From Tubulanus polymorphus (taxonomy: Eukaryota; Animalia; Nemertea), in NCBI RefSeq assembly GCF_964204645.1, contig NC_134029.1, positions 12,488,850 to 12,552,849 of the forward strand: 64,000 bases of DNA, in the 5' to 3' direction. The notes below the pieces were generated by a model. It did no database searches, was not told the DNA's origin, and was given only the letters and a program-made list of their open reading frames with translations. The position numbers were made by a program, and so were the translations under genes. Below are positions 27,318-64,000 of this stretch, piece by piece. The first letter of the stretch is position 1. Each line of letters starts with the position of its first letter.

Positions 27318-27334
27318 GAAAATATGTAAAATAA

Positions 27335-29136: not shown

Positions 29137-29571
29137 ATGGAAGATAAAGTTGATAGTATTGATATTATTCCTCATGATATAAATAAAACTAAATTAAAAA
29201 TATATTTAGAAAAACAAATATTAGAATTTGAAAGTGACTTGAAGATAAAAAAGAAAAAATATTTAAAAAGTAAAATTATATATTATCTTATTATTAGTGG
29301 TTCGGTTACAATTAGTTCTGTAATAACATTTCTAGCAATGTTCAGTCCATTAACACCTTTAGCTATATCAATTGGTGTATTAGGATTAAGTTCAAGTGTT
29401 TTAACTGGTATAAGTTCAAAATTAAATATAAAAAGTAATAAAGAAAAAATTAAAACTAATATAAAAGAAATTAATAAATTAAAGAATACACTAGACTATA
29501 TAATTAGTTTAAATGGCCATATAACAGTTGAAGAACAAGATAAATTATTAAAAGAATTAATAAATTATTAA
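29137..29571 (+). CDS. Two-TM membrane protein (144 aa)
   Basis: Two hydrophobic segments; identical protein at 58288..58722. Confidence 0.7.
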   Translation: MEDKVDSIDIIPHDINKTKLKIYLEKQILEFESDLKIKKKKYLKSKIIYYLIISGSVTISSVITFLAMFSPLTPLAISIGVLGLSSSVLTGISSKLNIKSNKEKIKTNIKEINKLKNTLDYIISLNGHITVEEQDKLLKELINY

Positions 29572-29587
29572 TTTTTTTATTATATAA

Positions 29588-30780: not shown

Positions 30781-30850
30781 GTAAATATGATATCAAAAAA
30801 TATCAAGTTACCATGATAAAAAATAAATAATTAATTTTTTAGTTAAATAA

Positions 30851-32101: not shown

Positions 32102-32133
32102 AATTTTAACTTTAATAAAAAATCTTATATTAA

Positions 32134-32925
32134 ATGGAAGGAGGTAAAGTATATAAACATATTCCATACATTGAAAAACATGAAAATAATGATGGTTTAT
32201 ATTATGTAATACCTTGTAATATAGCTTTGATATTTGATCCTATTTTCAAAATTTATAAAACTAAACTAATAGAAATCGATAATAATAAAAGTGGTGTTGT
32301 TGATAATTTAAGTAATGTAATTGATAATAATGTTTTACCTTCGACATCTGATAATGTTTTACCTTCTACATATAATAATGAAATAATATTAGATTATAGT
32401 GAAAATAGAAATTATTGTGATTATTGTAAAGGTGAATTTTCAAACGCTCCATCAAATTGGAATAAACATATGAATACAAAGGTACATATTACTAATGTAA
32501 TAGAACATGTTGGTTTAAGAGAATTTATAGAACACCCATTTAGATATGTTACAAAATTTGTTTCAAATAAAAAAGTAAATGGTCAAGAATTATATGAAGA
32601 TTTTTTATTAGCAACACCTAATAAAGATGAATTAGATTTAACTGATGCTAATAAAATATTAGGATCAAATATTGTAAATGAAATATTAGGAGCAAACACT
32701 AAAAAAGATGATAATGAAAATGGTGCCATACGGCACCCACATGGTGATATAGTTACAGATATTGATATTAAAGATTATGTGGACACACTTTTGGTGAAAG
32801 ATAAAGAAGAAACTTTTGATGATGCGGTAGAAAGGATGAATAAGTATAACAATAAAACAACTATTGATGATGATACGGTAGAGAGTTTGAATAAATTGTT
32901 AGGGTCTGATAGTGAAAGTGATTAA
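32134..32925 (+). CDS. Hypothetical protein with one C2H2 finger and acidic tail
   Basis: YCDYCKGEFSNAPSNWNKHMNTKVH; TAAATG start. Confidence 0.7.
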   Translation: MEGGKVYKHIPYIEKHENNDGLYYVIPCNIALIFDPIFKIYKTKLIEIDNNKSGVVDNLSNVIDNNVLPSTSDNVLPSTYNNEIILDYSENRNYCDYCKGEFSNAPSNWNKHMNTKVHITNVIEHVGLREFIEHPFRYVTKFVSNKKVNGQELYEDFLLATPNKDELDLTDANKILGSNIVNEILGANTKKDDNENGAIRHPHGDIVTDIDIKDYVDTLLVKDKEETFDDAVERMNKYNNKTTIDDDTVESLNKLLGSDSESD

Positions 32926-32954
32926 GATATTAATTATATTTAATTCAAATAATA

Positions 32955-33335
32955 ATATTAGTTGAAAATTGTATAAAATAATAGAAAATAAAAAGGGGTT
33001 TTTAAGTATTTAAGGTATTTAAGGTATCTAATACATATCTAATACATATCTAATACATATTATTTGAAAATACCTTAAATTATATTTCTTTTTTAAATTT
33101 ATGTTGAAACCTCAGTAATAATGAATAACCTTTATTATTTTCAAACTTATTCATATATTAGTTGCAATAATAAAAAATAAATTGGTTGAAAATTGTATAA
33201 ATAATATTTATTTTAAAAAAGGGGGTTTTAAGTATTTAAGGTATCTAATAGGGTATCAGGTATTAGGGTATCAGGTATTAGGGTATCAGGTATTGGGGTA
33301 TCTAATAGGGTATCTAATACATAGGTATATAAATA
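32955..33335. repeat. Intergenic duplicated block with short tandem repeats between convergent genes
   Basis: ttgaaaattgtataa...aaaaggggtttttaagtatttaaggtat occurs twice, followed by (atctaatacat)n and (gggtatcaggtatta)n. Confidence 0.8.
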
Positions 33336-33336
33336 G

Positions 33337-33949
33337 TTATTTTATACATTTATATTCATATGGAAATTGTAATCTCAGTAATAATTTTGAACCTTTATTA
33401 TTCTTTAATTTATTCATATATTCATCATATAATTCAGTAGGTATAATTTGATTTTCTTCCAATGATTGTTGCATAGATTTTCTATCTTTATTGTAGAATA
33501 AAACTAGAAATCTTATATTCTCCCTAAAGTCTTTAACAATTGAATTATATTTTTGATTTAAAACCCATGTTGTTATCCCAAAATGTCTTCCAGAGAAAGC
33601 TAAATAACATAACTCACTTTCTCTCACTTTTGAATCATGTAAATTTTGCGCAATCATCTAAAATGAATAATGTATTTGATCCTTTATAAGTATCAATTGC
33701 TATTTTTATACAATTATCTAAATTTTCTTTTACTGTTTTAGGATCTAATATAATAAACTTTTTTATCTTAACTATATCTCTATTATATGTTTTATTCATT
33801 TCATAAGTAGGACAGAATAATATTATATTATCAAAATGATTCTTATAAATAGTTTCTAGCAAGTCTAATATGAAATGTGCTTTACCACAGTTTGTTACTC
33901 CAGTAACTAACATATTATGCGGTTCAAATATAAATAAATCTTTATTCAT
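33337..33949 (-). pseudogene. A32/FtsK-like packaging ATPase (element B), one frameshift
   Basis: GVTNCGKA, LFILDDC, SGRHFGITTWVLNQKY; split near 33645. Confidence 0.92.
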
Positions 33950-35027
33950 TTATTCTTTTAATTTTACTAGATAAAATCCATTCATTAAATTTATCATCGT
34001 ATCCTTTATATTTCACCAAAGAATACTTTTTTCCTTTAAGAGTTTTTGTTTTCAATACTTTTTCTATTTTGTATTCTATTTCATCTGGATTTGGTACAAG
34101 TGATAATTCTTGTTCATAGAAATAACCTAATATTTCTTCATCTTTTAGATCTTCTAGTTTATAAACAAAAGGTTTAGTTAATATTATCTTTTTAATCTTA
34201 AATATTTCTTCAGTAAAATTAGGAGTATAACCTTTATAAAAGATTTTTCTATATTTAGATATTCTAACGTGTTGTCTTATTTTAAATTTAGGTTCGCCGA
34301 AATCATGTGTAACAAACGCTCCGTATAAATTATTCCAAACTATTTCCGAATTATCTTCTTTTCTAGCTTGTATAGGTTTCATATTTATAGAACTACGTTT
34401 AGAATTATTATAACCTTTCACTAAATCATCTAACACATCGATATATTTATATGTTTCATTAGCAGTAAAGTATTTCCACATTCTAGTTTCCAATGTTTTA
34501 TTAAATCTTTCTATAATAGATGCTTTTTTATCTGAATGTGTTGAAAAATAATCTACATCGTTATCAGATAATAGTTTTTTAAAATGTTTGGTATAAAATT
34601 CCTTACCTTCATCAAATTGTATCTTATCTGGAATAGCTTCTTTAAATATAGATTTAAAAGCATTTGTTACTTCTATACAAGTTTCATTTTTGATTGGAAT
34701 TGACCATGCGTATCTACTGAATATGTCTATAACATTCAGTATCCAGAAATATCCTTTGTTGTATTCTTCTAAGTTCTTCATATCAATTAAATCTGCTTGC
34801 CATTGTTGATCGATATATGAAACCATAACTTTTCTTGTTAAATAGGTTTTATCCATTTTCTTATGTATTTGATATGTGGGTTGGTTTTGTAACCATGATT
34901 TTAATTCACTATATTTTATATCACTATTATCAGATTTTATTTTATTCCATAATTCTGAAACGTTAGAATATGATACTTCACTTTCTGGGTTATAATATAA
35001 ATCTCTTAAATATTGTTCTTTTTTCAT
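33942..35027 (-). CDS. Retroviral-like integrase with chromodomain (open frame)
   Basis: QWQADLID, QFDEGKEF, IIERFNKTL; C-terminal LVKYKGYDDKFNEWI. Confidence 0.95.
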   Translation of the reverse strand: MKKEQYLRDLYYNPESEVSYSNVSELWNKIKSDNSDIKYSELKSWLQNQPTYQIHKKMDKTYLTRKVMVSYIDQQWQADLIDMKNLEEYNKGYFWILNVIDIFSRYAWSIPIKNETCIEVTNAFKSIFKEAIPDKIQFDEGKEFYTKHFKKLLSDNDVDYFSTHSDKKASIIERFNKTLETRMWKYFTANETYKYIDVLDDLVKGYNNSKRSSINMKPIQARKEDNSEIVWNNLYGAFVTHDFGEPKFKIRQHVRISKYRKIFYKGYTPNFTEEIFKIKKIILTKPFVYKLEDLKDEEILGYFYEQELSLVPNPDEIEYKIEKVLKTKTLKGKKYSLVKYKGYDDKFNEWILSSKIKRINE

Positions 35028-35033
35028 CTTATT

Positions 35034-35516
35034 TTAACCCATTAATAATAATTTAGATTTAGTTTCAATAGCTTTATGATTTGACTTATTTTCTGGTATA
35101 ATAGGTTTATTGTCTGTACACGGATAACTAAGTTTCCGATCATCATTGGAATCATCTTTATCATCAGATTTGAATTTTGATTTATATATTACACCGGATA
35201 ATATAATAACTGTGATTAACCCAATTGTAATATATAATTTATAATTACTTCCAGCATTAGAAGAATCAGATGGATTATCATTCGAATCAATATCGGATAA
35301 TTTCTGTGATTCATTTATATCAGTTAATTTCTTTTTCTTATCTTTTTTTAATTCTGAAGATCTTTTACCTAATTCTCTTGCCCATTTAATTTGTTTCTCT
35401 ATATCAGTTAATTTCTTTTTCTTAGCTTTTTTTAATTCTGAAGATCTTTTACCTAATTCTCTTGCCCATTTAATTTGTTTCTCGGATCTAGCCTTTTTCT
35501 TAACTCCATCACTCAT
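35034..35516 (-). CDS. Basic single-TM protein with internal 27-aa duplication
   Basis: EKQIKWARELGKRSSELKK twice; hydrophobic LYITIGLITVIILSGVIY. Confidence 0.7.
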   Translation of the reverse strand: MSDGVKKKARSEKQIKWARELGKRSSELKKAKKKKLTDIEKQIKWARELGKRSSELKKDKKKKLTDINESQKLSDIDSNDNPSDSSNAGSNYKLYITIGLITVIILSGVIYKSKFKSDDKDDSNDDRKLSYPCTDNKPIIPENKSNHKAIETKSKLLLMG

Positions 35517-36111
35517 TTATTTTAGTTAATTTTTGTTCTGATTCATTTTCTGTTTCACTGTTTGGTTGTAGTACATCTGTTTCGTTCTTACCTGATTTAT
35601 ATTCCATAGGCTTGATATTCGAAAATGTAATGACACCAGTAGAAATTAATGTCATAACCGATCCTAATTGGAATGAAGCATAACCAACCCATTTTTGTAA
35701 TTCAGTCATAACTAAGTAGTCATTTTTCAAATCACTATATAATTTATTTTCGTCATCAATTGGTATTAACTGGTTACATAACTTAGAGTAACATTTGACA
35801 ATACTATCTGAAATAGAATCATTTATTCGAGCCAATCTAGCTTCTTCATAAATCTTAAAATATTTTATTACTTTATCGGGTTTCATAGAGTCTAGTTCTT
35901 GAAAAGTAATGATTCTATTTAAAAACTCATTAGTTTTTCCACCGGCAATCAATAGTTCTATATGGTGCTTACAATATAAATAGTATTCATAATCTATATT
36001 GTTATTAACTTGAATAGAATTAGAAACAACTGTATCTTTATTATCACTAATACCCAAATCATCTAATGTCTTTTCAATATCAATACTATTCTTATTAGAT
36101 TTCTTTGACAT
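35509..36111 (-). CDS. Polinton hypothetical protein
   Basis: Homolog in A (4913..5803); TAAATG start. Confidence 0.75.
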   Translation of the reverse strand: MSKKSNKNSIDIEKTLDDLGISDNKDTVVSNSIQVNNNIDYEYYLYCKHHIELLIAGGKTNEFLNRIITFQELDSMKPDKVIKYFKIYEEARLARINDSISDSIVKCYSKLCNQLIPIDDENKLYSDLKNDYLVMTELQKWVGYASFQLGSVMTLISTGVITFSNIKPMEYKSGKNETDVLQPNSETENESEQKLTKINE

Positions 36112-36360
36112 TTATATTAGAGAAAAAAAGCAAAAAAAATATTATAAATATTCTTCAAATGATACTAGATAGTTAAAGTTAAAGAACTCTAGTATTGACT
36201 ACTGATACAAGCTAATTGAGTTTAAAGAATTTCTATTTGAATCTATTCAAAATATAAAGTTTTCTCTTTTTGAAAAGAAAGTATTAAAAATCTAATAGAA
36301 TTCACTAGCTAGTTGAAGTTATTGTTTTTTAAATACTTTTTATTTAAATTAGGATTTAGA

Positions 36361-37240
36361 TTATCTCACTACTATTGTCTAGCTATTAGGAGCAGTAACT
36401 ATAACTGTCCAGATAAGTCATTTCGGATTCTCGATAATAAATCCTAAAACTGAAAATAAATTCAAAGAAACGACTGGTGGAAATACTATTTCATGAACAC
36501 ATATATTTTATTCTACAATCATTATCGATTTCCACATTCCAAGCCGCTCCAGAGAGGAGCGGTAAGGTATGCGTGGAATGCAGGAATCAATAAAATACAA
36601 TACAACATCTGTCACTGTGCGACATTAACATTGAAATTCCGACAAACGTAATGCATTGAAAGCCTATGCAGTAAGGCTAAATGAGTCTCATGAGTTGAAA
36701 TATCCATTATTTCTGATTCCACATCCATCTATCTTCACTTTCTTGATTCAATAGTCTTCATTTTGTTATCTAAAAGATAAATATCTAGCGTAGAATAAAA
36801 CTAACTTGAAGTTGTAGTTGTAAAATATTAATTACAACACTTAAACATGACCATTTTGTGGCTCATCTTACCAGGATAAGTTTTACATGTTTAGCGTTTT
36901 CCAACGCCTTAATAACAACAAAAACAGTACTTACATTTATAACTGTAAACTCCTAAAATTGTGTTTATAGAGAGAATATCCTATACGTTCCTATGCTTAT
37001 GTGCTGCGCGCTTATAACTGCCAGTTATTCACTAGCTAAACACTGTCTGGTGCAACAGATGTTCCTTCCTTTGTAATATAATTGATTAATCCTTTTCAAC
37101 TGAAATAGCACATTCGATCAATATTCAAATGAGATACACCCTATTCAACTGAATATGAAATGCGGCACAGATGTTTTTGTAAACAACCTAATACAATACA
37201 TACAGGCGGTTTGACATAAATCGAGAGTAACCGGTTTTCT
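36361..37240. ncRNA. Candidate structured non-coding region
   Basis: No ORF in the track; more GC-rich than flanking genes; several hairpins visible; includes a motif conserved in element A. Function and strand unproven. Confidence 0.3.
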
Positions 37241-37246
37241 AAGCGT

Positions 37247-37897
37247 TTAACATTCAACGCATTTTTCATTATGTGTTGAGTTCCATAATTCAACAAATGT
37301 CTTTGCTTTATCCAGTTGATCTAAATATAACTGTATATCTAGTTTATTAGATTTAATTATATTTTCTTTCTTTTCAAGAGGCCTTAAATTTCTCCAACCC
37401 CAAATAAGTTTTTTATTGTATTCATCATTCATGTTAAATTTAGAAATCGGCAACACATGATCAATATGAAAGTATTCACCATAATTATCTATATTCATTT
37501 TATCGTCGAATTGATATATTATCCATGATTTTAAGAATTCATCTGAACAACCCAATAGATTAGATAGTGTTTCTGAATGTGTTTCTTTGTTGAATAATTG
37601 TGTTAATCTAGATCTTAAACATTGTTTCAATCTAAAATTAAGATCTGTTTGATATCTTTCTCTCATATATTCTGCCATATAATAATTATAATGTTCTATA
37701 TCATCTTCTCGGTATTTTTTGGTATATAGTTTATAACAAGTTTTACAGCAATATTGAAAACCATCTTTGCTAATCTTACGCTTACTAAATTCTGTTAATG
37801 ATTTATCTAATTCACATTTAGAACACTTCTTGTAGTATATGTTTATAACGCCAGTGTTATTTGTAATATTTATAGTTTGTGGTTGTTCTGGTTCCAT
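37247..37897 (-). CDS. HNH-type endonuclease with N-terminal CxxC...CxxC
   Basis: KCSKC...CCKTC, LLGCS, FHIDHVLP...WRNLRPL...ENIIKSNK, a pattern familiar from giant-virus and phage HNH proteins. Confidence 0.8.
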   Translation of the reverse strand: MEPEQPQTINITNNTGVINIYYKKCSKCELDKSLTEFSKRKISKDGFQYCCKTCYKLYTKKYREDDIEHYNYYMAEYMRERYQTDLNFRLKQCLRSRLTQLFNKETHSETLSNLLGCSDEFLKSWIIYQFDDKMNIDNYGEYFHIDHVLPISKFNMNDEYNKKLIWGWRNLRPLEKKENIIKSNKLDIQLYLDQLDKAKTFVELWNSTHNEKCVEC

Positions 37898-37974
37898 TTA
37901 TTATATGTATTTTTTACTAAATTGGTTAATATTTTAGAATCCTCTTCCATTTCTTCGACCAACGTCATCCTTTT

Positions 37975-38226
37975 TCATTCCTCGCTGCTTTTGATAAGTT
38001 GTTTCGATTCCTTGATATCAAATTCCTCAACGTATTGTTCATTATTTGGATCATTATTCCATAATTCAATAAATTTCTTTGCCTTTGTTAACTGTTCTGA
38101 ATATAACTGTAAATACTCTAATTTCAATTTATTCTCTAAATGTGTTTTAGTTTTATTGTGTCTTGCTTTTTGGGATTTATCTACATTGATATTACATGTT
38201 GGACAGTAGTACTTATTTGCTTCCAT
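37975..38226 (-). CDS. Chimeric 83-aa ORF: pPolB N-terminal Zn finger plus HNH-like tail
   Basis: First 38 aa nearly identical to the pol start; QLYSEQLTKAKKFIELWN resembles QLYLDQLDKAKTFVELWN of the HNH ORF. Confidence 0.6.
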   Translation of the reverse strand: MEANKYYCPTCNINVDKSQKARHNKTKTHLENKLKLEYLQLYSEQLTKAKKFIELWNNDPNNEQYVEEFDIKESKQLIKSSEE

Positions 38227-38456
38227 TTTAATACTAAATTTTTTATTAAAATTGATTTTAGAAGTTATTCATTTATATTTTATTCATATATATGAATATT
38301 TTAAGAGTAATAGGGATTATGTTGTTTAATATCAAAGGTTGAAGGGGCGAGTAAGTAAAAATAAAAAATAAATTCGAGTTTGCGAGAATTTATTTTTTAT
38401 TTTTTATGAGCTCGACCTTTCGACCTTTGGTATGAAACAACATATTCCCTATTACT
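38113..38456 (-). repeat. Right TIR of B
   Basis: Reverse complement of 22675-23019, roughly a dozen differences by eye. Confidence 0.95.
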
Positions 38457-48566: not shown

Positions 48567-50043
48567 TAATAAGAAACACGCGAATCTCAATAGGGTTTTA
48601 TGTGATGTAACAGAAAACCCTAATAAGAAACACGCGAATCTCAATAGGGTTTCCTGTGATGTAACAGAAAACCTAATAATAATAAGAAACACGCGAATCT
48701 CAATAGGGTTTTCTGTGATGTAACAGAAAACCCTAAATATAGCTGCAAAGCAGCGATAACGGGTTTTCTGAGCAGGCGTGCTATTCATAGTTTGAAAAGT
48801 GGATAATATAAATATATCAATACGGGATACGCATTTGACGTGTCAAGTCACACCAATGCGGTTTAACATAACATAATTTATAGTTATAGTCAAATTGGGG
48901 GTTACTCGGGTCGTTTAGTTGTCTGCGGAGTCGAGTAGATTGGTTACCCGTCTGTAACATTGGTTACGGAAACGACTCGTCAGCTTGATGAGTTGTATGT
49001 ATTATGATTGTGCGCCACCTGCATCTTCCGAAATAATGTTCATATAATTATTTGAAGGGAGGATTGAAATCAATTATCAACGTACATCTGAATATGTAAG
49101 TCCTTAGTAACTTTCTGTTGCAGAGGGCATAGAAAAGATTTTGAAATTATTTAATTAAAATATAAATTTTATTTACGAAAAATAAACTATTATGGTCAGT
49201 ACAAATTGAAAATTCATAGTGTATTTTTAAGAACAAGCTTACATAGCTTACAGAATACATCACGTACATTTGAATTTTATAAGTGATGGGTAAAAATCAA
49301 CGTGTGACAGAAAAAAATGTAGTTAATTATTCAACAATATCGAAATATGTGCTCTCTTTTTAAACTAATGGAGTGATACGCAATTAATCACATGGCCTGT
49401 ATTAAAAGATAGAACATACAAGTTGGATATTTATACGTCGAAACATGTGAACAGAAACTAAAACTTTGATATCAGTGACCAGTATCGAATTACACAACGA
49501 CAATTGGCTTTAAACTCAACAAACATTATTAAAGAATGTTTCAAACAAAATGCTTTATATAACGACATGAATAAACTTGTTTTACAAAACAAGAAAGTAC
49601 ATTTTGAACTTTTGAATGGTCGAATCCCATTTATTCACAGTAACCTGTGATGTGGCGATCCTCGGAGCTATCATTCTTGATGACGTCACTAACAAGTGGT
49701 CACGGCCGTCGCGTGCACTCATTTCTTTGAAAATCTAGCTTCCTCGCGGAGCGGGACCTGGTGACGCTGCGCCCCGCCCCCTTCGTGCTGAGATATATCT
49801 TATTCCCAGTCAGCAAAGACAGGTTCTAAAGATCATAGAGTGCATCGCTGGAGGGTTTCCGATCCAATTTGAATTGGTGCGGTGGCGCTCTCAATGCGAA
49901 AGTTTTTGTGAATTTTTTAGTCGGCGACGGACGTTTATCGTTGTAAGTGATGTAATATGAGTAATAGGAAGATGTGGGTTTCATACCAGAGGACGAGAGG
50001 ACGAGACACCACTCATCACCACAGGTAATTTTTTTCCTAATAA

Positions 50044-53000
50044 ATGGGGGAGAATGAACACCAGCCAGAAAACAATAATGTTAATAAAAATCAATATTAT
50101 TGCACATATTGTAAAAAATACGTCGATACATCTAATAAAACACGACATGAAAAAACTGCAAATCATATAAAAAATGTAATAGATTTTGAAACTCCAGAAA
50201 ATTCCAATGAAAGAAAAGAAAGATTAGAAAATATGAAATAAAATGTGAAGTTTGTAATGAATTTATAGTAAAAAGGAATTATAATAGACATCTCGAATCA
50301 CAAAAACACCATCAAAATTTGAGTAATAATCTTTTAGGAAAAGATTATTTTGATGATAAACCTCAAAAAGTAAAAAAACCAACTTCAAAAACTAAATCCA
50401 TTTCAAATAAACCTTACATGGAAAATGTTAGAAATTATATTGATTCACTAGAAATAAAAGATACAATTGAAATTTTAGAAACATTACGTAGTAAAATTGG
50501 TCCTGCAGCTATTATATTTAGATTTTTTAAAGGTACAACAATAGAAGATTATAGTAAATTTAATGAAATAATAGAAAAAATACTAGATTTGATAACAGAT
50601 GTTGAATATCCAAAAATTAGTATCTCTGGGAAAGTAAGTTTTTAAAGTCAGAAGATAAAATGGATTATAATATTCAAACACTCTCTGATGAAATAATTTC
50701 AAAAACACAAATAAAAGAGAAGTAAGAAAAAATATTTAATGAATTTAAACGTCATATTGAAGAAAGATATTTTGAGGGTTCTGGCTTAACATTGAATGAA
50801 ATTATATTTTTATATTTAAATGTTTATAATACAAAAAGAAATAAAACATCAAAAAGTAATAAAATGATTAAAAAGGATTCAAACTTTACAACAGAAAAGG
50901 AGGATATTAAAGGATCATCTTATATTAAATTACCATTTACAACAAAAGCAGTAATAAATGTTCAAAATGAAGATAATAAATGTTTTCTGTGGGCAATTAT
51001 TAGTTGCTTACATCCAACAGAAGATATTACACATAGTTTTAGAATAAAAAATTACCGGAAATAAGAAACATTATATAAAATTGATCAATTATCCAGTAAC
51101 TATAAAAATGATTTCTAAAATAGAAAAAGTTAATAATTTAAAAATAAATGCAATTACCAATTAATGCAATTACCAAAGACAAAAGGTGAAAATATTAAAG
51201 ATTATACATTGGAAGCTTTATATTTAACAGAATATTATGATGATGAAAATGCTATAGATTTGTTATATTACAAAAAAGATGAAAATGAACATTATATGTG
51301 GTTAAAACAAATTGATTTATTCTTTAGAACAGAAAGTGATCATCATCGTAAAATTTATCTATGTAGAAAATGTTTATCTAAATTTATGACTGAGAATACA
51401 TTATTAAAACATAAAGAATTATGTGATAATAAAGATTTTTGTAAATTAATAATGCCAACAGAAAAAGATTATAAATTGAAATTTACTAATCATAAATTTA
51501 AGAATATTGTTCCATTTGTAATTTATGGGGATTTTGAATCGTTGAATAAAGAATTAACTGATCAAGATAGAAAAGAAATATATAACAAAAAGCAATTATT
51601 AAAATCAATGGATAAAGGAAATGAATTAAATGAAGACACAATACAAGACCCACCAATTATAAATACAATTAAAAAAGTTCATCAAAGAGCTGCTGCTTAT
51701 GGAATTTATATAAAATCAAATTATCCTGAATTATATGAAAATCAATATATTTCTTTTAGAGGTGAAAATGTAGTTAATGATTTTTGTGATAAAATGATTG
51801 AATTAGAAAGTGATTTTGCAAAATTATTAAACAAAAATAAAAGAATAGTTATGACAAAAGAAGATGAAATTGATTTTAATTATGCAACTCATTGTTGTTA
51901 TTGTGAAAAACGTTTTTATTCATTTGATAAAAAAGTTAGAGATCATGATCATTTAAATTCAAAATATCGTGGAGCTGCTCATGAAGATTGCAATTTACAA
52001 GCAAAGAAAGTCAATTTCGTACCAATATTATTTCATAATTTATCAGGCTATGATACCCATCTATTTATAAAACAATTATCGGGAAAATTGGGCGCAATTA
52101 ATCAAGAAATAGAAGAATATAATGCTATGAATGGTGTAAATGTAAGAAAATATGATTTTAAACTATTAGCTAAAACATCTGAAAATTATATTTCATTTCA
52201 ATTTGGTTGCATTAGATTTTTAGATTCTTATAGATTTCTAGCAAGTTCATTAGATAATTTATCAAAAAGTTTAGTTGATAATGATTTTGTAATAACTCGA
52301 TATTATTATCCAAATGAACAAGATTTTAAATTATTGAGATATGAAGGCGCAATTCCTTATTCATTTTATAAAACACACAATGATTTTAATGTAACAGAAT
52401 TATTAAAAGATCAATTTTATGATCAATTAAAAGAGGAGTATGTGAAAGACGAAGTGTTTAATAGAACATTAAATATTTGGAACCATTTTAAGATGAAAAA
52501 TCATGGTGAATTAGTTGATTTATATTTAAAATCAGATGTTATGATATTGGCTGACATATTTGAAAAATTTAGAGAAGTTAATTTGAATCATTTTAATGTT
52601 GATCCTTGTTATTGCTACTCTAGTCCTGGTTTAAGCTGGCAATGTGGTTTAAAATACACAAATGTAGAATTAGATTTATTTAAAGAACCAGACATGGTTT
52701 TATTATTTGAAAAATCAATTAGAGGTGGAATTAGTGGTGTTATGGGAGATAGATATTTTAAAGCAAATGATGAATATAAATTATTATATATTGACGCCAA
52801 TAATTTATATGGTTGGGCAATGATGCAACCTCAACCATGTAAAAATTTTATATTAACAGAAGATGAAAATGGTGATAAAACTGATTGGGAAAGCGCAATT
52901 GCGAGTTTAAAAGATGAAGCACCAATTGGTTATTTCTTTGTAGTTGATTTAGAATATCCTGAAAATATAAAGTTTAAAACAAGAAACTTACCTTATTGCC

Positions 53001-55104
53001 CAGAACATTTAACTGTAGATGATAGTTATTTAAGTGAATACCAGAAGAAAAGAAAACCGAAAGATCATGTTTTTACAGAAAAATTAATACTTACTCAAAA
53101 TAATAAATACAATTATATTGTTCATTATAGAATGTTAAAATTTTATCTAAAACAAGGAATGAAATTAAAGAAAGTACATAGATATATTGAATTTAATCAA
53201 TCGAAGTGGTTAGAAAAATATATAGATTTCAATACTCAACAGAGAACCATATCAACAACAGATTTTGAAAAAGATTTCTTCAAATTAATGAATAATAGTT
53301 TTTATGGTAAAACATGTGAAAATATTAGAAATAGAAATGATATTGAATTAGTAAATAATTCTGAACGACTAAGACATTTACAATCAAGTCCTAGACATTT
53401 AGGAAATAAAAGATTTGAAGATTATTCAACAGCAGTTAAATTAAAAAGAACGTCAATGAAATTTAATAAACCTATATTCATTGGTTCAACTGTTTTAGAA
53501 GTATCAAAATTATTAATGTATGATTTTTATTATGTTTTACAACCACTTTTTGGGGAAAAGCATATTGAAATATTATATTTTGATTCTGTAACAGCTAACA
53601 CCCCAATATCATTAAAATGTAATGATAAAATATTGATAAGAAGAATTTCAGAAATAATTCCAAAACAAAATGAATGTTATATTTCATATGGTGAAAAAGA
53701 ATTAATACAAATGAATGGATTAATGGATGTTTGGACAAGAAATGGATGGAAAAAATCAAAGAATGTTATTAGACATAAAACAAATAAGAAAATCTATAGA
53801 GTTGGAACTAAATTAGGATTTGTAGATGTTACAGAAGATCATAGTTTAATTAAACGAAATGGCGATGAAATAAAACCAATTGATATAAAAATTGGAGATG
53901 AATTATTACATAAAAGATTTTTCCAAAGAATGAATCATATGTCATTTGATGAAATTATTGATAATATTTATGATATAGAACCCGAAACATTAGAAGTAAA
54001 AGAATATTTTATCAAAGGATTTTTCATGGGTGATGGTTCAGCAGGTGTGTATAATTATGTTTGGGGTAATAAATATTGTTGGTATTTATGCAATCAAGAC
54101 TTGAAATTATTAGAAAGAATTAAGAAATTCTGTGAAGAAGTTTATTCACATAAAACATTTAGAATCATGGATGTTATGAAATCATCAGCAGTTTATAGAA
54201 TACTTGTAAATAATCCTAAAGATTTTGCTATAAAATATAATGATGAATTCTATATTCATGCAATAGTGAAAAGTAATACTTCAACTAAAGAAAAGATAGT
54301 ACCAGATTATGTATTAAATGCAAAAAATAATTTAAGAAAGTGGTTCTTCATTGGATTCTATGCCGCAGATGGCACTAAAAAATTTACAAAGGATAAAAAG
54401 ATAACCTTTGCACAAAAAGGAAAAGTTGCTATATCAGGATTAAATATATTATGCAGTTCATTAGGATTTAATATGAATATAGAATTAATTAAATCTAAAC
54501 CAAATTGTTTTAATTTAAGGCATGTAGAAAAAGAATTAACAGAAGAAGTTAAAGATTTATTTGAAATATATAACCCAACTGACTATGTTTATGATTTATC
54601 AACAGATGATGGAACATTCAATTCTGGGTTCCCATTAATCCAAAAAATACTGACAGTTACATACTAAAAATCAAGACAAATGACATAACAAAAGATTTAA
54701 AAACATTAAAACATCATTTTGATTTTAGCAATTATCCCAAAGATCATGAACTATTTAGCAATGATAATAAAAAGATTCCTGGTAAATTTAAAGATGAATT
54801 AGGGGGTGATGAAATGATTGAATTTGTTGGGATAAGAAGTAAAATGTATAGTTATAGAACAAAAGATCATGAAGCTAAAAAGTTAAAAGGAATAACAAAA
54901 CATGTGGTTGATAAACATATAGAATTTCAAGATTATATAAAGTGTTTATATAAATCAATTGTAATAATACATAAAATGAATTGTTTAAGATCAGAAGATC
55001 ACGAGATGTACATTAATGAAGTTGAAAAAACTAGTTAGAATCCATTTGATGATAAAAGGCATATTTTAGATGATGGTATAAAAACATTACCTTATGGCCA
55101 TTAA
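50044..55104 (+). pseudogene. pPolB of C, intein-containing, with several stops and frameshifts
   Basis: ORFs 50044, 50319, 50792, 51164 and 54814 align in order to the pol of B; all Exo and Pol motifs present. Confidence 0.93.
53585..54648 (+). mobile_element. Intein with LAGLIDADG homing endonuclease (~355 aa)
   Basis: YFD|SVTANTPI (block A), VDVTEDHSLI (B), FIKGFFMGDGS (C), FFIGFYAADG (E), YVYDLST (F), ...KN|TDSY (G, after restoring one A at 54642-54647); absent from B. Confidence 0.93.
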
Positions 55105-56425
55105 AACATAAAATCAATATCATCAAACTCGAAATCACTATTTGTTTCTTCTTTTTCATTTAATTGTTCTTGTATAATTTGTTTAGGTTCTTCCATTTCA
55201 ATTTTCTCATTTAAATAAAGTTCTATCTTGTACCACATTTCATCTCGCTCCCTTTGTTTCTTTTTGTTCGTTAATTCATCAAATGGAATTATAATATCGA
55301 TGTTCAAATAATTTACAATCTTATTTAAAAAGAATTCATAATTAATTGAATCTGTTATTCTATTTTCCAAATGATACATTAATATTTGTTTGAATATTTT
55401 TTTTATATTTTCCATATCTTCTTCTGTTAATTTAGGTTTTTCATAATAATCGTTAAATAATAAATATAAATACATTTTCTTTTGTTTTGTGTTAAATGTT
55501 GATGGAATAATTGTTTTTATAATATCTTGTTTAGTTATTTCACCATTTTTATTTTCTATCATTTTCATTTTTTCAAGCCATTGCATATATTCTGGTGTAT
55601 GATCTTCCGTAGAAAATACCTTAAAAATTTCATCTAGATAATTTAATTTTGGATCTATAAGAATATTTCTAGTTTTTTTATCACCCCATAAATTCTTTTG
55701 CCATCCACATTCATTACAAAATAACACAGTACCTTCTTGTCTTAAGGTCGCATAATAACATTGTGGGCATTTTTGTTTATAATTTATTGGTAATAGATCT
55801 TCATTAAGCTCCTGGTATTTTCTTACGTTTTCTTTATGTTTTATTGTTCTATTATGTAGATTTGAATTACTTGTTGTAATAATCAATTTACAATATTTAC
55901 AATAATATGTTTTTCTTGTTAATTCATTATATTGTTTTCTAACTTTTCAACTGTTTCTTTATTATCTGGTAACGTTTTCTCATATTTTATTTTTTCTAAT
56001 ATTTTATTTTTTCTTTCATTGAATTCCGCTTCAAATTTATTAGAAATTTTATCTATATGTATTTTACGAAATTGATGATTCTCCCAAGCTTCTATATTTT
56101 CAGGGTTATATTTTATTCGACAAGGCTCACAGAAATGATCTTTTATATTATCCTTGTCATAGAATAAGAAAGGTCTTTTCCAAATAATTTCAGGTTCAAC
56201 TTCAGAATTACTATTACTTTCATTACTATCAACATTAGCCGTTGCGCCATTAATTTTACACTTCTCTGAATGTTTTTTAACATAATTTCTTGAGAATAAT
56301 TTATCACATTTTGGGCAGTTTGTTTTAGGGGGTTTATAATTTTCATCATGTTTTTTCATATGTCGAGCCATATTACTTTTTCTTAGAAGTTCACCACAAA
56401 TTTCGCATGGTATCTTCTCATCCAT
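55101..56425 (-). pseudogene. Multi-Zn-finger protein with VLTF3-like C-terminal domain, one frameshift
   Basis: Adding one A near 55937 joins the 168- and 261-aa ORFs through LEKQYNELTRKTYYCKYC. CPQC...CNECG plus INYEFFLNKI...L...KKQRERDEMWYKI recalls poxvirus/NCLDV late transcription factor 3. Confidence 0.6.
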
Positions 56426-56492
56426 TTATTTTGGAAAAATTTTATTAAAATTAATTTTTAGTGATGAGCGTTAATTTTTTATGTTATAAATA

Positions 56493-57247
56493 ATGGTAGA
56501 ATTAAAAGAATATAGAATATTTGTTGATTCTAGAAAACTTACAAATTATAAAACACATAATTTATTAGTTCAATTAGATAGAGAATTCAAGAATTGTGTT
56601 GATTTAAAATTAGTTAATATAAGTTTATGTAATTCTTTTTACAATATATCGGATAAAAGTTTTGATCATAGATTGTTTATGATTCATGATAGAAATATGG
56701 ATAAATGGTATCATCTATTTCTAAGACCAGGATTATATAATTTAGAAACATTATCTCAAGAAATTAATAAAAGAGCTCAGTTAAAAGTGGGTGAATCTGT
56801 TGGGTTTAACATTAAATTTAATAAAATTGATAGTACTAATAAAATAAGAATAAAGTTAACTAATGAACAATATAAATTCATAGTAAGAAAACCATTAGCT
56901 AAAATGCTAGGAGTTAATCCAAATAAAGTTTATTCAAATGTTGATACTACACCAAATATAATACCTTTTACGTACTTCTATATTTATTGTAATTTAATTG
57001 ATCCTACAAAAACATTCGAAGCAACTAAAGATACAATTTGTAATTCTGGTTTATTAAATATTTTACCATTAAAAATGTCAAACAATTTGGAACTCAAATA
57101 AATTATAATTTAACAGAATGTGATTTTAAACCTTGCATTCCACATTTCAATAATTTCAAATTAGAAATAAGAAATCATAATGGTTATTTAATTGATTTAA
57201 ATAACTTTCCTGTGATATATGAATTAGTTATAAGATGTAGAGAGTAA
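56493..57247 (+). pseudogene. Minor capsid (penton-like) protein, frameshift near 57075
   Basis: IFVDSR, NSFYNI, LRPGLYNLETLSQEIN, YFYIYCNLID, LLNILPL, then IRNHNGYLIDLNNFP in a shifted frame. Confidence 0.75.
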
Positions 57248-57263
57248 TTTTTTCATTATATAA

Positions 57264-57605
57264 ATGAATATAACTGTTGGACCGAGTATATGTTTTGGGT
57301 TTGATTTTAAACATGGTAAAGAAATGAGAATTAAACTAAATGATGTAATTACTGATATAAAAAGTAAATCATTTAACAATGCGTCAATGATTGATAAAGA
57401 AAATTATAATATAGAAAAAGTAATTGATTTAATTAAATCACCTTTAGAATATTATGAATTAAATGAAGATGGAATTATTGATGATATCAAAAACATATTA
57501 TCCAAAATATATGATAATCATCAAAGTAGTAATGAAATAAATGTTGAATTAATCATCACTAAGATAACTAAATATTTTGATGATAGTAATTTTTTTGATA
57601 AATAA
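57264..57605 (+). CDS. Hypothetical protein (113 aa)
   Basis: Identical to 28114..28455. Confidence 0.7.
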   Translation: MNITVGPSICFGFDFKHGKEMRIKLNDVITDIKSKSFNNASMIDKENYNIEKVIDLIKSPLEYYELNEDGIIDDIKNILSKIYDNHQSSNEINVELIITKITKYFDDSNFFDK

Positions 57606-57826
57606 ATGAGGGATAATAAGTGGATAATAACTGGATTATATAATGGCGCATTACTATCAGTTGGAACTGTTGGTTATTCAATGGTATTAAAAAAGTATTT
57701 AAAATGGGAAGTGTTAATGTTGATAGATTTGATATAAATGATATTTTAAAATTAACATTAGCAGTTACTTTATCTAATTCAACTATTGATTATTTGGAAA
57801 AACGAAAATATATTCCTCCCATATAA
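57606..57826 (+). pseudogene. Small hydrophobic protein, A-run frameshift
   Basis: Matches 28456..28677 except A6 versus A7 at ~57689. Confidence 0.6.
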
Positions 57827-57850
57827 ATGCATAATTTTTTTGCTAAATAA

Positions 57851-58268
57851 ATGGCTTCTGCAATTATAACTATTATAGGATCGGCAATTGTTAACGCTTT
57901 AGCATTTACTGGTGGTGGATATTTATTTAAACATATTGGAAAAAAAAAGTTCATTAGGAGAACAAAGAAGACATAACTTAGCGTTAGAGAAATATAATAA
58001 AGCAGCAGAAGAATATAGAGAAAAAAGATAAAACTATATGGATTATATTAACAAGGAATTATATGATCAGAAGATTTCACATAGAGATTTTCAATCAGTT
58101 GATGATGCAATGAGTTTAAATAACGCGGTAACAAATAAAGAAAAATTACATCTATACAAACCTAAATTATCAGATTATTATACCCCGAGTAAAGAACAAC
58201 AGAAATATGAAATAATATGGATTTTAGGTGGAACTGTTATATTTGTAGCATATAAATTTACTAATTAG
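57851..58268 (+). pseudogene. Small membrane/coiled-coil protein
   Basis: Copy of 28702..29117 with the same TAA (58029). Confidence 0.65.
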
Positions 58269-58287
58269 TAATTTTTTTTCTAAATAA

Positions 58288-58722
58288 ATGGAAGATAAAG
58301 TTGATAGTATTGATATTATTCCTCATGATATAAATAAAACTAAATTAAAAATATATTTAGAAAAACAAATATTAGAATTTGAAAGTGACTTGAAGATAAA
58401 AAAGAAAAAATATTTAAAAAGTAAAATTATATATTATCTTATTATTAGTGGTTCGGTTACAATTAGTTCTGTAATAACATTTCTAGCAATGTTCAGTCCA
58501 TTAACACCTTTAGCTATATCAATTGGTGTATTAGGATTAAGTTCAAGTGTTTTAACTGGTATAAGTTCAAAATTAAATATAAAAAGTAATAAAGAAAAAA
58601 TTAAAACTAATATAAAAGAAATTAATAAATTAAAGAATACACTAGACTATATAATAAGTTTAAATGGCCATATAACAGTTGAAGAACAAGATAAATTATT
58701 AAAAGAATTAATAAATTATTAA
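58288..58722 (+). CDS. Two-TM membrane protein (144 aa)
   Basis: Identical to 29137..29571. Confidence 0.7.
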   Translation: MEDKVDSIDIIPHDINKTKLKIYLEKQILEFESDLKIKKKKYLKSKIIYYLIISGSVTISSVITFLAMFSPLTPLAISIGVLGLSSSVLTGISSKLNIKSNKEKIKTNIKEINKLKNTLDYIISLNGHITVEEQDKLLKELINY

Positions 58723-58738
58723 TTTTTTTATTATATAA

Positions 58739-60125
58739 ATGGTAGATAGTTTTCCAAAAGCTTTCCAATATAATAAATCAATTAAATATAATATTCCAGC
58801 AATAGATTTTAATAAAGATATTACATATAGAAATGAAGTTTTAGATTCATTAACTAATTTAGAAATTTATGTTACTGAAACTAATAATTTTAATGCAAAG
58901 ATGGAAAACATATTTCATGTCTATTCAATTAATTTTAAAAAATTGAAAGAAGAAAAAACAATGGTTATTAAAATCTAATATGAAGTATTGGCAGAACCAA
59001 TTAAATTTTGCTGTTTATTGTGCAACAACAGGTTGTGGAATTAGTTGGAATGATCATTTGAATAATTGTAAATATAAATTAATTCAAAGTTTATTTAGAT
59101 TTCATACTTATTTTCAAATAAGATTAATATTAAATGAATTAGAGACCCCTTTACCAGGATCTAGATATTTTAAAGAATTAGATAATAATATTAATTTATC
59201 AAAGTTTTATAAAACTTGTAATGAATTTAATATAGATATAAATAATTCTGATTTTAGAACAAAAATTGGAACAATAAGATCACTTCCTTGCCCTAAAAAG
59301 ATTGCAGAATATTGTGCACTTCCCATACCATCTAATAGCTTTTATAATATCTATAATAATAAATTAGGTTATGGTAAAATAGAAACAAAGGATTTAGAAA
59401 CATTAAATTTCAATAAATTACCGAAATTTTATGATAATTTAAAACAAGAAAACAATAATGGTTGGGTTTATTTCATTTTAGAAAATAATGAAGGTTTTAC
59501 AAAATCAGGTATACAAAGAATAAATCAATCTATTAGAACTTATTTGATATGTATTCTAGGATCACAGGTTGAAACAAGATCCCCAATAATTGGAAATTTA
59601 AATACATCATTTGATACACAGAACCAATTCAAAGTATTATTTGAAGATTCCATTCATAATGATAAAAATAGATCGATTCCAGAAAACATTGTAAGATATC
59701 AAAATTATTTAGATAAATCTCATGTAAGACTAAATTATTGTATAGGCCCTAATCTATTAATTATTTCTAATGATTTAGTACTAAAGATGGGAAACATAAT
59801 TGGTTACAATAATCTAATTAAAACTGCAACAATAAATAATTCATTTGGATTAAATGATATAAATAAAAAGATTATTACTGCTCCAAAATTAATGGAAGGC
59901 GAAAAAAATAAAAAACATATTCAATCAACAGAAACTAAAACTAAGAATATTAAATTAAATAATGATTCTAAACCGGATTATAATACATCAGAAAATATTA
60001 AAACTGATAATATTCAACATGAAATAATTAAAACTGATAATGATAATTAATCCCATGAAAATACTAAATTAGCTTTAACTTGTATAGGAATTGTTATAGG
60101 AGGAATATTATATTTTAAATTTTAA
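58739..60125 (+). pseudogene. Conserved Polinton protein (QLNFAVYCATTGCGIS) with C-terminal TM anchor
   Basis: 79- and 356-aa ORFs joined across an extra A at ~58955 (continuous in B); in-frame stop at 60048 precedes a hydrophobic tail. Confidence 0.7.
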
Positions 60126-60141
60126 TTTTTTTATTATATAA

Positions 60142-61588
60142 ATGGATGTAGAAGGTGGAGAAGATATTGGAATGGATAATTTTGATGAACCTGGCATAAC
60201 TGATGAACTACAACCTGATTTTGGTGAAACAAGTTTTAATGACGGTAATGAGCCAGAATATAATAATAATTTAAATATGCCTGATTATATTAAAAATGCA
60301 GAATCACAATTAAATCCTGAAAATTTAGACCCAGATTTCGATAATTTAAACAAAATACCTAAATTAGAACGTATAATTGAAAAATCTAAACTTAACATAA
60401 ATGATAAAGACGTTGGACCTTTTGCAGATCAATTAAAATTCTTAGATAATGGTAAATGTTATTATCGTTTGAAAGATGATTATTATATTGATATCTCTTA
60501 TAAAAAAGAAGAAAAAATAATAGCAAAATCAACTTTGCTTAAGTTATGTCCAAATAGAATTAAGAGAATAAGAAATAGTAATGAAATAGAAGATGTAACA
60601 CAAGAAGAAATTATTAAAAATGAAAGAGTATTTAAACAAAAAATTTATGAATTATTTGAAATAATCAAAAAGAAATCAGAAACAGAAACAACTTCTGAAC
60701 AGAATAAAACTTCCAAAACTAGTAAATTTAAATCAAATAAAGTTCCAATTGAAAAACTTTTACCGAATGGATTAATTGATGCAACAGATCAACAATTAGA
60801 AGATTTAAATAATATATTTTCCTGTTGAAGCAATTTGAGAAATTAAAATTATAAGACTTGCATCTGATAAAATTGCGCATGATAAAAGTATAAGAGATTT
60901 TAAAATTAAAACTTTAGAAAAAGAATTCACTGATAAAAATAAAGAAATAGAACAATTAAAGTCTGATTTAGATCATCAAGTAATTGATGAAATAGAATAT
61001 AGGCAAAAAGAATTACGTTTAGAAAAAGAAAGAGATGATTTAGAATATAACATCGAATTACAAAAAGAAGAAATTAAATTATTGTTAAAATCATATGATT
61101 ATAATATTGATAGATTAAAAGTTATTTTTAAAGATTTGTTGATTAAACCAAATTCTGAAATATCATTGAAAGATAGAATAAAGTTATTATTTAAATTAGA
61201 AGGAATAACAATTCTTTCAATTCTAACAGCTGTAACTATGTTATGTACAACAATTGGTTTAGCAATATCAAATGCTTTAAAATCTACTCCTACTCCAAAT
61301 AAACCGGATAAACCCCCAAATGATAATAATTCTATACAAGATAAAGTTAAAGATGGTTTAAAGAAATTAGCAAAATATTTATGGGAACTATCTAAAAAAT
61401 CTGCTGCAGCTTTACCAGGAATTATTGCATCAATTGTTGGTTTTATATTGAAATCTGCTGGGAATATTCTTAACTTTGCTGCTGAACATATTATTTTATT
61501 TTTAATTACAGTTGTAAGTGCTATTATTTTTGGGTTAGTGAATATGATATCAAAAAGATATCAAGAAAAAATAATAAAAAATAAATAA
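60142..61588 (+). pseudogene. Acidic/coiled-coil protein with C-terminal membrane helices
   Basis: 228- and 168-aa ORFs bridged by a disrupted coiled coil homologous to 30000-30780. Confidence 0.7.
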
Positions 61589-61608
61589 TTAATTTTTTTG
61601 TTAAATAA

Positions 61609-62808
61609 ATGAGTGGGAGTTATATCAATCCTTCGAAGAATCATAGAATATCTAATGCTATTAAAGCAGAAAGATCACATCATATAATTACTCATAACCC
61701 TTCTAATATTAATCCTGATGAAACTTTATATGTTAGAATTCCTAGATTAACACAAAATACTTTTTATGTTCCAAATAGTATTTATTTATCAGCTGATATA
61801 AAAGTAACTGGTCATGATAATAATTATGTTGTCGATAATGTTGGGAGATATTTGATTAAAAAATTAACTATAAAGATTGGTCCAGAAACAGTTTTCTCAT
61901 TAGATGATTATAATTTATTTATGCATTATAAAGATTTATGGTTAACTAAAGAAAATAGAAATAATATGATATTTAAAGGTATTCAATCGGAAAACCATAA
62001 TAAATTAAGATCAGGAGCTAATGACGCAATAGTAACTCGTGCCACAGATAATTTGATTAAAAATATTTATGGAAGCAAATATAAAATTCCATTAGACTTT
62101 GAATTGATAAATAATAATGCACCTTTATATAAATATGTAATTCAAGAAGATATTATATTTGAGATAACATTTGCTCCTGTAAATGAAATTGTATTATCCA
62201 GCGTTGTTAAAGATATGGGATATAAATTATCGAATATATGCTTAGAATATGATACAGTAACTAATGAAAATATTGCTAACACAATTCAAACTCAATACAA
62301 TCAAGGATTTTCATTATTATATGATTATATTGATAAATTTAAAACTGTAACTATTAATGCAAATGATGAAATAATTAATGAGAATATTAACTTCCCAAGA
62401 AGATCTATTAAAGGTATATTAATATTTTTTACCATTGCAACATATACAAATGGCGCAATAAATGTTGATAATTATTATAATCCTGAAATAACAAAGGTAG
62501 AAATAACTATCGAAGGAACAGCAAATAAAATATTTTGTCAAGGAATGAGAATAATAGATCAGTCAAATTGTAATATTAATCAAATTGATTATTATACCGG
62601 TAATAGATATGCATTATGGTTAGATTTTAGAACAACAGAGGATAATTCATTACATGGTTCTGGAAAAAAACTACAAAACACTAAAGATGGAATACAATTA
62701 TTCATGACAAGGAATAAAGGAATCAAAAATTTTAAAATGCACATTTATATTATATCTGACGCACAATTAAATATTGTAAATTCACAATTAGATAGTATTC
62801 AATATTAG
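61609..62808 (+). CDS. Major capsid protein of C, with in-frame deletion
   Basis: Highly similar to 30851..32101 but lacks ~16 aa (WPEIRKHFMNEKVKS...). Confidence 0.8.
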   Translation: MSGSYINPSKNHRISNAIKAERSHHIITHNPSNINPDETLYVRIPRLTQNTFYVPNSIYLSADIKVTGHDNNYVVDNVGRYLIKKLTIKIGPETVFSLDDYNLFMHYKDLWLTKENRNNMIFKGIQSENHNKLRSGANDAIVTRATDNLIKNIYGSKYKIPLDFELINNNAPLYKYVIQEDIIFEITFAPVNEIVLSSVVKDMGYKLSNICLEYDTVTNENIANTIQTQYNQGFSLLYDYIDKFKTVTINANDEIINENINFPRRSIKGILIFFTIATYTNGAINVDNYYNPEITKVEITIEGTANKIFCQGMRIIDQSNCNINQIDYYTGNRYALWLDFRTTEDNSLHGSGKKLQNTKDGIQLFMTRNKGIKNFKMHIYIISDAQLNIVNSQLDSIQY

Positions 62809-62838
62809 AAATATAAAGTTGAAATTAAGGATATATAA

Positions 62839-63844
62839 ATGGGTGGTTAAAAAACTCCTAATACTAAAGAACAATATTTAAGAAATTTATATTACAACCC
62901 TGAGAGTTCGGTTGCTTATTCCACTACCAAAAATATATGGCGTCAAGTAAAACAAGATAAATTAGATAAGATAATCTCACAAAATTTAGTTAAATATAAA
63001 GATATAAATGAATTTATGTTAGAACAACCAACATACACAACACATAAAAAAATTGTTAGAAAATATAAAACTCGTAAAAGTATGGTAAGTTATGTAGATC
63101 AACAGCTGTACAAACATCAAATGTTTTAAGAAAATTTCTTTCGGATGATAAACTAAAACCAGAAAAAATACAATTTGATGATGGAAAAGAGTTTGATAAT
63201 TCACTTGTTCATGAACTCTTAGATAATCATAATATTAAATATTTTTCAACAAAATCGGATAAAAAAGCAGCAGTTGTTGAACGATTTAATAGAACTTTAA
63301 GAACAAGAATGTGGAAATATTTTACAGCAAATAATACTTTTAAATGGATTGATGTTTTACCATAATTGATAGAAGGATATAATAATTCTTATCATTCTCC
63401 TATTGGAATGAAACCTATTGATGCTAGAAAACCTGAAAATGCTGAAATTGTTTGGAATAATTTATATGGAGCATTTCTTGTAGATGATTTTGGTGAACCT
63501 AAATTTAAAGTTGGTCAAAATGTTAGAATTTCTAAGTATAAAAAGATATTTGATAAAGGATACGATCGAAATTTTACTAGGGAAATATATAAAATAAAAA
63601 AGGTAATAACAACAAAACCATATGTCTATAAATTAGAAGATTTAGATGGTGAAGAAGTTGATGGCTATTTTTACGAAGAAGAATTAAGTTTAACTACTGA
63701 AAATCTAGAACAAGAATATAAAATTGAAAAAGTATTAAAAACAAAAACTATTAAAAGAAAAAAAAATATTCTTTAGTAAAATGGGTTGGATGGCCAGATA
63801 AATTTAATGAATGGATATTGTCAAGTAAAATTAAAAATATATAA
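62839..63844 (+). pseudogene. Integrase of C
   Basis: TAAATG start, stop at codon 4, ~124-bp deletion at ~63105 relative to A removing the first catalytic Asp, A-run frameshift at ~63760. Confidence 0.9.
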
Positions 63845-64000
63845 ATGAATAAGGAATTATTTATATTTGAACCTCATAATATGTTAATTTCTGGCGTAAC
63901 AAATTGTGGAAAAACTTATTTTATATTAAATTTATTAGAAACTGTTTATGAAAACTATTTTGATAATATAGTATTATTTTGTCCAACATATGAATTTAAT
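63845..64000 (+). CDS. Packaging ATPase of C, N-terminus
   Basis: MNKELFIFEPHNMLISGVTNCGKTYF; runs off the window. Confidence 0.9.
   Translation, partial: MNKELFIFEPHNMLISGVTNCGKTYFILNLLETVYENYFDNIVLFCPTYEFN

Follow-up and report, generated by a model that had tools for sequence, protein, structure and literature searches.

A giant-virus-type intein at motif C of a decayed Polinton DNA polymerase, with relatives at the same site in other Polintons

The window, a stretch of DNA of 64,000 nucleotides, carries two Polintons, here called A and B. Element B (22675..38456, + strand) is complete and has all four Polinton/Maverick hallmarks: a protein-primed DNA polymerase (pPolB), an rve integrase, terminal inverted repeats (TIRs) and a target duplication of 6 bp (CACTTC). 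The two copies of the duplication lie at 22669-22674 and 38457-38462 inside a host interspersed repeat, and it is confirmed by empty copies of this repeat at 8848, 9127, 9405, 19390 and 42489. The pPolB gene of B (22918..26919, +) is free of intein and occupies one frame with an in-frame stop at 25594; its product folds like the pPolBs of MELD virus, adintovirus and bidnavirus, the fold matches to MELD virus and adintovirus (an animal-tropic group; Starrett 2021) being at 26-28% identity. The same gene encodes an endonuclease VII-like domain (24650-24800; PF02945, slightly under cut-off), which is common in that pPolB class. The integrase, with a chromodomain, is encoded at 33942..35033 (−), and a split ATPase-like ORF was recognised by eye at 33337-33949. 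A predicted double-jelly-roll major capsid protein (30851..32101, +) is a candidate, with feature matches of 0.97-0.98, a recognition value below threshold and Capsid_N on 14-24% of members in some clusters; capsid searches found no named relative. Two further ORFs of B are on the − strand: a free-standing one at 37247-37897, in which an HNH-like motif (HIDH...N...N) can be made out by eye and which has no Pfam match, and a short one at 37975-38226, where the right TIR repeats the polB start and so encodes the same N-terminus. An Rfam scan of the window returned nothing.

Element A (49960..64000, +; left terminus AGTAATAGG) is decayed and runs past the end of the window. It shows a pPolB gene, integrase in pieces (62866-63841) and the left terminus, the right end lying beyond the window, and it has a capsid gene at 61609-62808. 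The N-extein, that is the pPolB up to the residues YFD, spans 50086..53584 (+) and holds four frame changes (at ~50200-50240, 50635, 51070 and 51150) and one stop (50723). The C-extein, beginning with TDS (Thr at +1), spans 54649..55098 (+) and has a stop at 55036, so that the polB of A bears six lesions, four frame changes and two stops, besides a slip at the end of the intein described below. Judging from these lesions copy A is a fossil, which would be able to make neither polymerase nor endonuclease, as its polB is broken upstream. Elsewhere, at 4076-7640, the window has a third Polinton arm. It is truncated, belongs to A's family and has an A-type terminus; over the integrase region it shares 98% identity with A (63105-64000), and it is ended by an array of a 31-bp satellite.

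Between 53585 and 54648 (+) the polymerase of A is interrupted at catalytic motif C by an intein-coding sequence, recognised by its motifs, HMM matches and fold, with a Hint splicing domain and a double LAGLIDADG endonuclease. The first codon (Ser) stands at 53585, directly after YFD, which ends at 53584, and the codons for TDS resume at 54649, giving the layout YFD/S...KN/TDS (slashes mark junctions). Using the standard lettering of intein blocks, block A lies at 53585-53605, block B (VTEDH) at 53828-53848, the first LAGLIDADG motif at 54014-54040, block D at 54287-54304, the second LAGLIDADG motif at 54350-54376 and block F at 54587-54604. The key residues are Ser1, T83/H86 (TEDH), D150, K237, D262 and D337, D150 and D262 belonging to the LAGLIDADG motifs GFFMGDGS and GFYAADG, respectively. 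A class-1 LAGLIDADG intein is thus indicated by interruption of a motif that has empty homologues, by the Hint residues and by two acidic LAGLIDADG helices. The HMM search gave matches above cut-off for TIGR01445 intein_Nterm (24.9 and 29.3 bits; cut-off 24.5) and LAGLIDADG_3 (PF14528; 29.8, cut-off 22.5), whilst Intein_splicing was significant (E 1e-5) yet under its own cut-off; the C-terminal 47 aa searched alone matched none of the domain profiles. A preliminary sequence-only reading, made from the letters of this stretch, had noted splicing blocks A, B, F and G and two LAGLIDADG motifs.

Structural comparison agreed with this assignment. An AlphaFold model of the intein (pLDDT 94, with 77 sequences as input) had homing-endonuclease inteins as its top Foldseek matches in the PDB (7qsu, E 1e-15; 7qst; 2cw7; PI-PfuI; PI-SceI), and against viral models the PolB inteins of nucleocytoplasmic large DNA viruses (NCLDVs) came first. 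A sequence search of the PDB gave a weak intein match (E 0.16). Together these results confirm that 53585-54648 is a Hint and LAGLIDADG intein at YFD/TDS in motif C of a Polinton pPolB. That the assembly had joined a fragment of giant virus to a Polinton is barely credible, as the two junctions are exact and are found again in the independent records P0305, P0298 and P0001, and the GC contents of intein and extein match (25% and 24%).

The insert is 1064 nt long, which is not divisible by three. The intein frame is free of stops as far as ...FNSGFPLI (54640), and K-N/T-D-S can be read solely in the downstream frame; the coordinates and layout given by the sequence-only reading were thus correct, with the qualification that the final residues require a change of frame. 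This slip falls within a run of A at 54642-54647, just before the C-terminal junction, and in intact relatives the insert is in frame. Real decay is favoured over a base-calling error as its probable cause, because the 4-kb polB of B has no frame change and the polB and integrase of A have several.

In B the same position reads contiguously YFDTDS (codons acc gat tct), as it does in P0157, P0160 and P0161. The homologous empty site is at 26385..26425 (+), with the junction at 26403/26404, and the difference in the TDS codons noted earlier was borne out. Upstream of the junction 18/18 nt equal those of A, and the first 9 nt downstream include 4 mismatches, all synonymous, so that 26/30 nt agree around the site. 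The 45 nt upstream are, narrowly, the best conserved of 35 windows (42/45). The four downstream mismatches gave no significant signal of resistance (p 0.09-0.18 against a background of 20-26%). The close similarity proposed for the flanks holds next to the site, but the polB DNA of A and B is overall just 74-80% identical and the N-extein protein 73%. The description of B as an empty allele of A has accordingly to be dropped: on these identities A and B are sister subfamilies. B may still be a homing target, as its site differs silently and enzymes of this kind often accept such changes; in the part of PMC3159444 covered here, LAGLIDADG cleavage is described as tolerating silent target changes, whereas non-synonymous ones can block it.

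Other parts of the two elements are more alike. Their structural stretches are 93% (56488-59154 in A, 27329-30002 in B) and 88% identical (60807-62816 in A, 30036-32109 in B), well above both the integrase (76%) and polB (74-80%). The two subfamilies therefore appear to have exchanged segments, which would mean that they can recombine.

A protein search with the intein of A gave 467 matches, and the 120 of these that were listed were headed by Polinton polymerases (P0001, 62%; P0002, 49%; P0003; P0004), followed by family-B polymerases including that of Mimivirus. An intein at the same site is present in at least ten other pPolB clusters, defined at 90% identity (P0001-P0004, P0006, P0007, P0152, P0153, P0163 and P0168); as the intein was the query of these searches, such counts should not be read as frequencies. 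A wider search found two close intein fragments among 45 new pPolB-like representatives: P0305 (69%) has the same N-junction, and P0298 (76%) has an intact C-junction, its intein standing before T-D-A. Both acidic LAGLIDADG motifs are kept in all 12 of the pPolB inteins listed. Scans of IMG/VR and metagenomes for the intein yielded 197 loci, of which one (L118) is a Polinton, and none was found in the prokaryote genomes scanned. Related inteins also occur at D/TD-like junctions in a topoisomerase II (P0005, several copies) and a thymidylate synthase (P0044), probably by non-allelic spread of the same family.

The intein of Mimivirus PolB is 38% identical to that of A over 367 columns and is inserted at the equivalent site, YGD/TDS, which upholds the earlier proposal of an NCLDV-PolB-type intein in a protein-primed Polinton polymerase. 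The flanks YGD/TDS recur in 123/131 non-Polinton inteins, and the exteins of 128/131 of the non-Polinton inteins in the tree are Mimivirus-PolB-like. The Mimivirus intein also ends in K-N before TDS. The penultimate Lys, which had been singled out as an oddity, was rejected as an unusual feature, since KN is the commonest ending in this family (92, against 23 for HN, among 143 inteins extracted from 158 matched proteins, with 10 redundant or partial ones skipped and 6 not delimitable).

Phylogenetic analysis placed the intein of A within a clade composed only of pPolB inteins (support 100 for 10 rows with FastTree; 99 for 8 rows in a quick mixture tree); the P0152 and P0153 inteins fall outside this clade. 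A single fresh jump, as originally suggested, is contradicted by this clade and by an intein tree that largely follows the polymerase tree. The affinity to NCLDV inteins is real, but the intein belongs to a family resident in at least ten other clusters rather than to one new crossing. It is correspondingly very improbable that a giant virus recently passed its intein directly to element A, with B as the present target. The intein is indeed of NCLDV type and B agrees with A at 26/30 nt around the site, but the closest inteins are those of other Polintons (62-76%, against at most ~43% for NCLDV-type ones), A is broken upstream, leaving the enzyme inexpressible, and the pPolB-only clade largely refutes such a jump. 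Giant viruses are the likely source from which the intein lineage as a whole passed, long ago, into Polinton polymerases, a direction suggested by the NCLDV inteins being far more diverse in trees that are unrooted. Elements such as that on contig L199 (6-3842), which has virophage-like genes by eye and a pPolB of B's class (42% to B), could be a bridge from giant viruses.

The intein and polymerase trees agree on three subgroups, (window, P0001 side), (P0002, P0003) and (P0004, P0006, P0007), which suggests long residence in Polintons. Single origin in pPolB was not rejected (AU p 0.575, 34 rows); two separate entries into pPolB appear in three trees, without support from the AU test. Both the shared subgroups and the AU result would suit one acquisition by an ancestral Polinton, followed by inheritance and loss with no homing still under way. 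This is nevertheless rather improbable, as it requires precise and repeated losses, the endonuclease motifs have been kept throughout the listed inteins, and P0168 belongs to a distant polymerase class. The exteins of P0168 have no BLAST match to those of the window and yet its intein nests in the clade of A's, which would indicate a lateral move. On a 49-row polymerase tree, with four candidates left out because their site was not matched, presence of the intein required 9 changes, no fewer than in shuffles.

Full and empty alleles occur side by side, at >95% identity, in three clusters. The P0002 cluster has 136 members, on contigs of up to 1 Mb, and among the 15 listed 7 are full, 6 are empty and 2 fail to cover the site. 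In comparisons of proteins, not DNA, over a 24-residue window picked after inspection and with pairs that are not independent, P0002 and each empty allele have different residues at 8-10 of the 24 positions, against 13-56 of 881-1167 elsewhere (1-5%); full alleles differ at 0/24. In a second cluster, P0153 and the empty P0266 have 3 differences in 1256 positions and all three lie within −3 to +5, and in the third P0138 and the empty P0141 have the same protein sequence at the site. Among 102 close intein-free polymerase pairs used as controls the site was no more variable than the rest (106/2448 and 4784/84525, respectively), and only two pairs were enriched there, both involving P0277, of B's own clade. 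Amino-acid differences thus concentrate at the insertion site in two of the three mixed clusters, a pattern that precise loss alone leaves unexplained and that points to homing with co-conversion of the flanks.

The six empty alleles of the P0002 cluster form three site haplotypes, HYTD/CDSM, QYFD/TDAM and HYGD/TDAM, in which T+1 has become C or S+3 has become A. Some of these may be escape alleles. There is a chance, a little under even, that the differences between full and empty sites are solely co-conversion tracts from a divergent donor Polinton and that no escape allele has been selected. In the P0002 cluster the differences between plus and minus alleles are asymmetric (about −7 to +44 codons), resembling a conversion tract, and the plus flank HYMD/TDSF equals that of the intein-bearing P0003 and P0163; moreover, the intein of P0298 precedes TDA, so this variant is no absolute block to insertion. 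Against tracts as the whole explanation, the empty alleles themselves fall into three haplotypes, 7/15 empty-empty pairs are enriched for differences at the site (p<0.01), and DTDS is altered in them though it is retained by 37/38 of the other pPolB representatives that reach the site. The same kind of change is seen in P0277.

Homing itself, to which the relatives point as an ongoing process, would work as follows. An intact element would express a polymerase precursor from which the intein would excise itself by the class-1 route, as its residues (Ser1, the block-B His, the block-F Asp, the terminal Asn and Thr+1) and fold suggest. Splicing would rejoin the catalytic D-T-D, and the element would replicate at little cost. 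Once free, the endonuclease would cleave motif C in polB copies that lack the intein; these would be repaired on the template of a copy that has it, and so acquire the intein together with its flanking codons. Less surely, cutting would be evaded by empty copies in which residues at the site have changed. Copy A would be a fossil of this cycle, and B a cousin whose nearest codons differ silently and which may be cleavable. Overall, we consider it probable that the window holds an intein of the giant-virus family in a decayed Polinton polB, likely of an animal, and that the lineage is likely an old entrant from giant viruses, likely kept by homing. The fuller proposition of a living intein family in an animal germline, which homes among Polinton copies, jumps between polymerase classes and has driven escape changes of empty copies in or beside the catalytic motif in an arms race of drive and resistance, is tentative and somewhat short of an even bet.

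The elements are likely integrated in an animal genome. The flanks resemble a repeat-rich nuclear genome, with 37-41% GC, satellites, interspersed repeats and a Ty3/gypsy fragment; this last is the C-terminal part of a pol gene (606-1727), and the 31-bp satellite forms arrays at 7640-8713, 12435-19270 and 41146-42370 that give rise to spurious ORFs. The only pPolB match with a named host is from Mytilus (~40%), and it forms a supported clade with the intein-bearing P0152 and P0153. Entry into an animal germline, as the sequence-only reading had it, is thus favoured by the flanks and the Mytilus match, but the host is inferred and this pPolB class also occurs in fungi, protists and virophage-like contigs such as L199. 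A protist, a fungus or a co-assembled symbiont as host, which would leave a Polinton intein and no animal-germline one, is unlikely. It would fit with the lack of an identified host gene within the window, with adintovirus-class PolB in fungi and unicellular eukaryotes (covered part of PMC8502044) and with a B capsid that is not tied to animal hexons. The repeat-rich flanks, the Mytilus clade and the chromodomain integrase and capsid module of the elements speak for the animal.

The intein resembles those of NCLDV PolBs, such as Mimivirus APMV R322, in its motif-C site (xxD/TDS), in Ser1, Asn and Thr+1, in the Lys before the terminal Asn and, for Mimivirus, in its size of ~350 aa and two LAGLIDADG motifs. 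It differs in its host, which is the protein-primed PolB of a 16-kb integrating Polinton instead of an RNA-primed delta-like PolB, and the pPolB inteins group in a clade, or clades, of their own. In the parts of the literature covered here, the Mimivirus PolB intein is given as residues 1053-1403 (Ogata 2005, PMC549080) and 67 viral DNA-polymerase inteins are tabulated (Green 2018, PMC5784728). Inteins are borne by viral-like DNA polymerases endogenised in Klebsormidium, Tetrabaena and Hondaea (covered part of Gallot-Lavallee 2023, PMC10710043). There too the intein interrupts a viral polymerase whose gene is on a nuclear scaffold of a eukaryote, but these hosts are algae and a labyrinthulomycete, and the Polinton carrier is multicopy and self-integrating with empty sister copies; the words 'polinton', 'metazoa' and 'animal' have no occurrences in the searched text of that paper. 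HNH and VSR nuclease inserts have been described in Polinton pPolB (covered part of Jeong 2023, PMC10748475), and in the part seen of Krupovic 2024 (PMC11071308, citing PMC10748475) nuclease inserts in pPolB are speculated to stem from intein invasions. Like these, the present case has a nuclease domain inside a Polinton pPolB, and the pPolBs of the window also have the endonuclease VII-like insert; unlike them, as they are reported without a splicing domain, it has a complete Hint and LAGLIDADG intein at a catalytic motif. The word 'intein' is absent from the searched text and supplement of PMC10748475 and from the searched text and supplement text of PMC8502044. As in iridoviruses, the carrier of the intein is probably an animal-associated virus, but that of Chilo iridescent virus ends in Gln and is in an exogenous NCLDV (cited in the part seen of PMC549080), whereas the Polinton carrier is chromosomally integrated and multicopy. 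Inteins are mentioned in general terms only in the searched parts of PMC12220804, PMC3671162 and PMC5718144. A literature search that covered sources other than subscription papers, Repbase and InBase, where prior notice is possible, found no intein described in a Polinton, and the inteins of Polinton polymerases are apparently an undescribed extension of the giant-virus PolB intein family.

The finding matters because inteins have been said to be absent from animal genomes. They are stated to be absent from metazoan genomes in the covered part of PMC8529194, and a eukaryote-wide survey recorded them in fungi, algal plastids, a few protist groups and large DNA viruses (covered part of PMC5784728). 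The Polinton family adds inteins with Ser1/Thr+1 cysteine-free junctions and new predicted LAGLIDADG nucleases from eukaryotic hosts, and its multicopy clusters with full, empty and altered-site alleles make the homing cycle and resistance to it measurable. If a homing intein is truly resident in Polintons, it would provide a route for inteins into animal chromosomes and would show directly that giant viruses and Polintons have met at the level of DNA.
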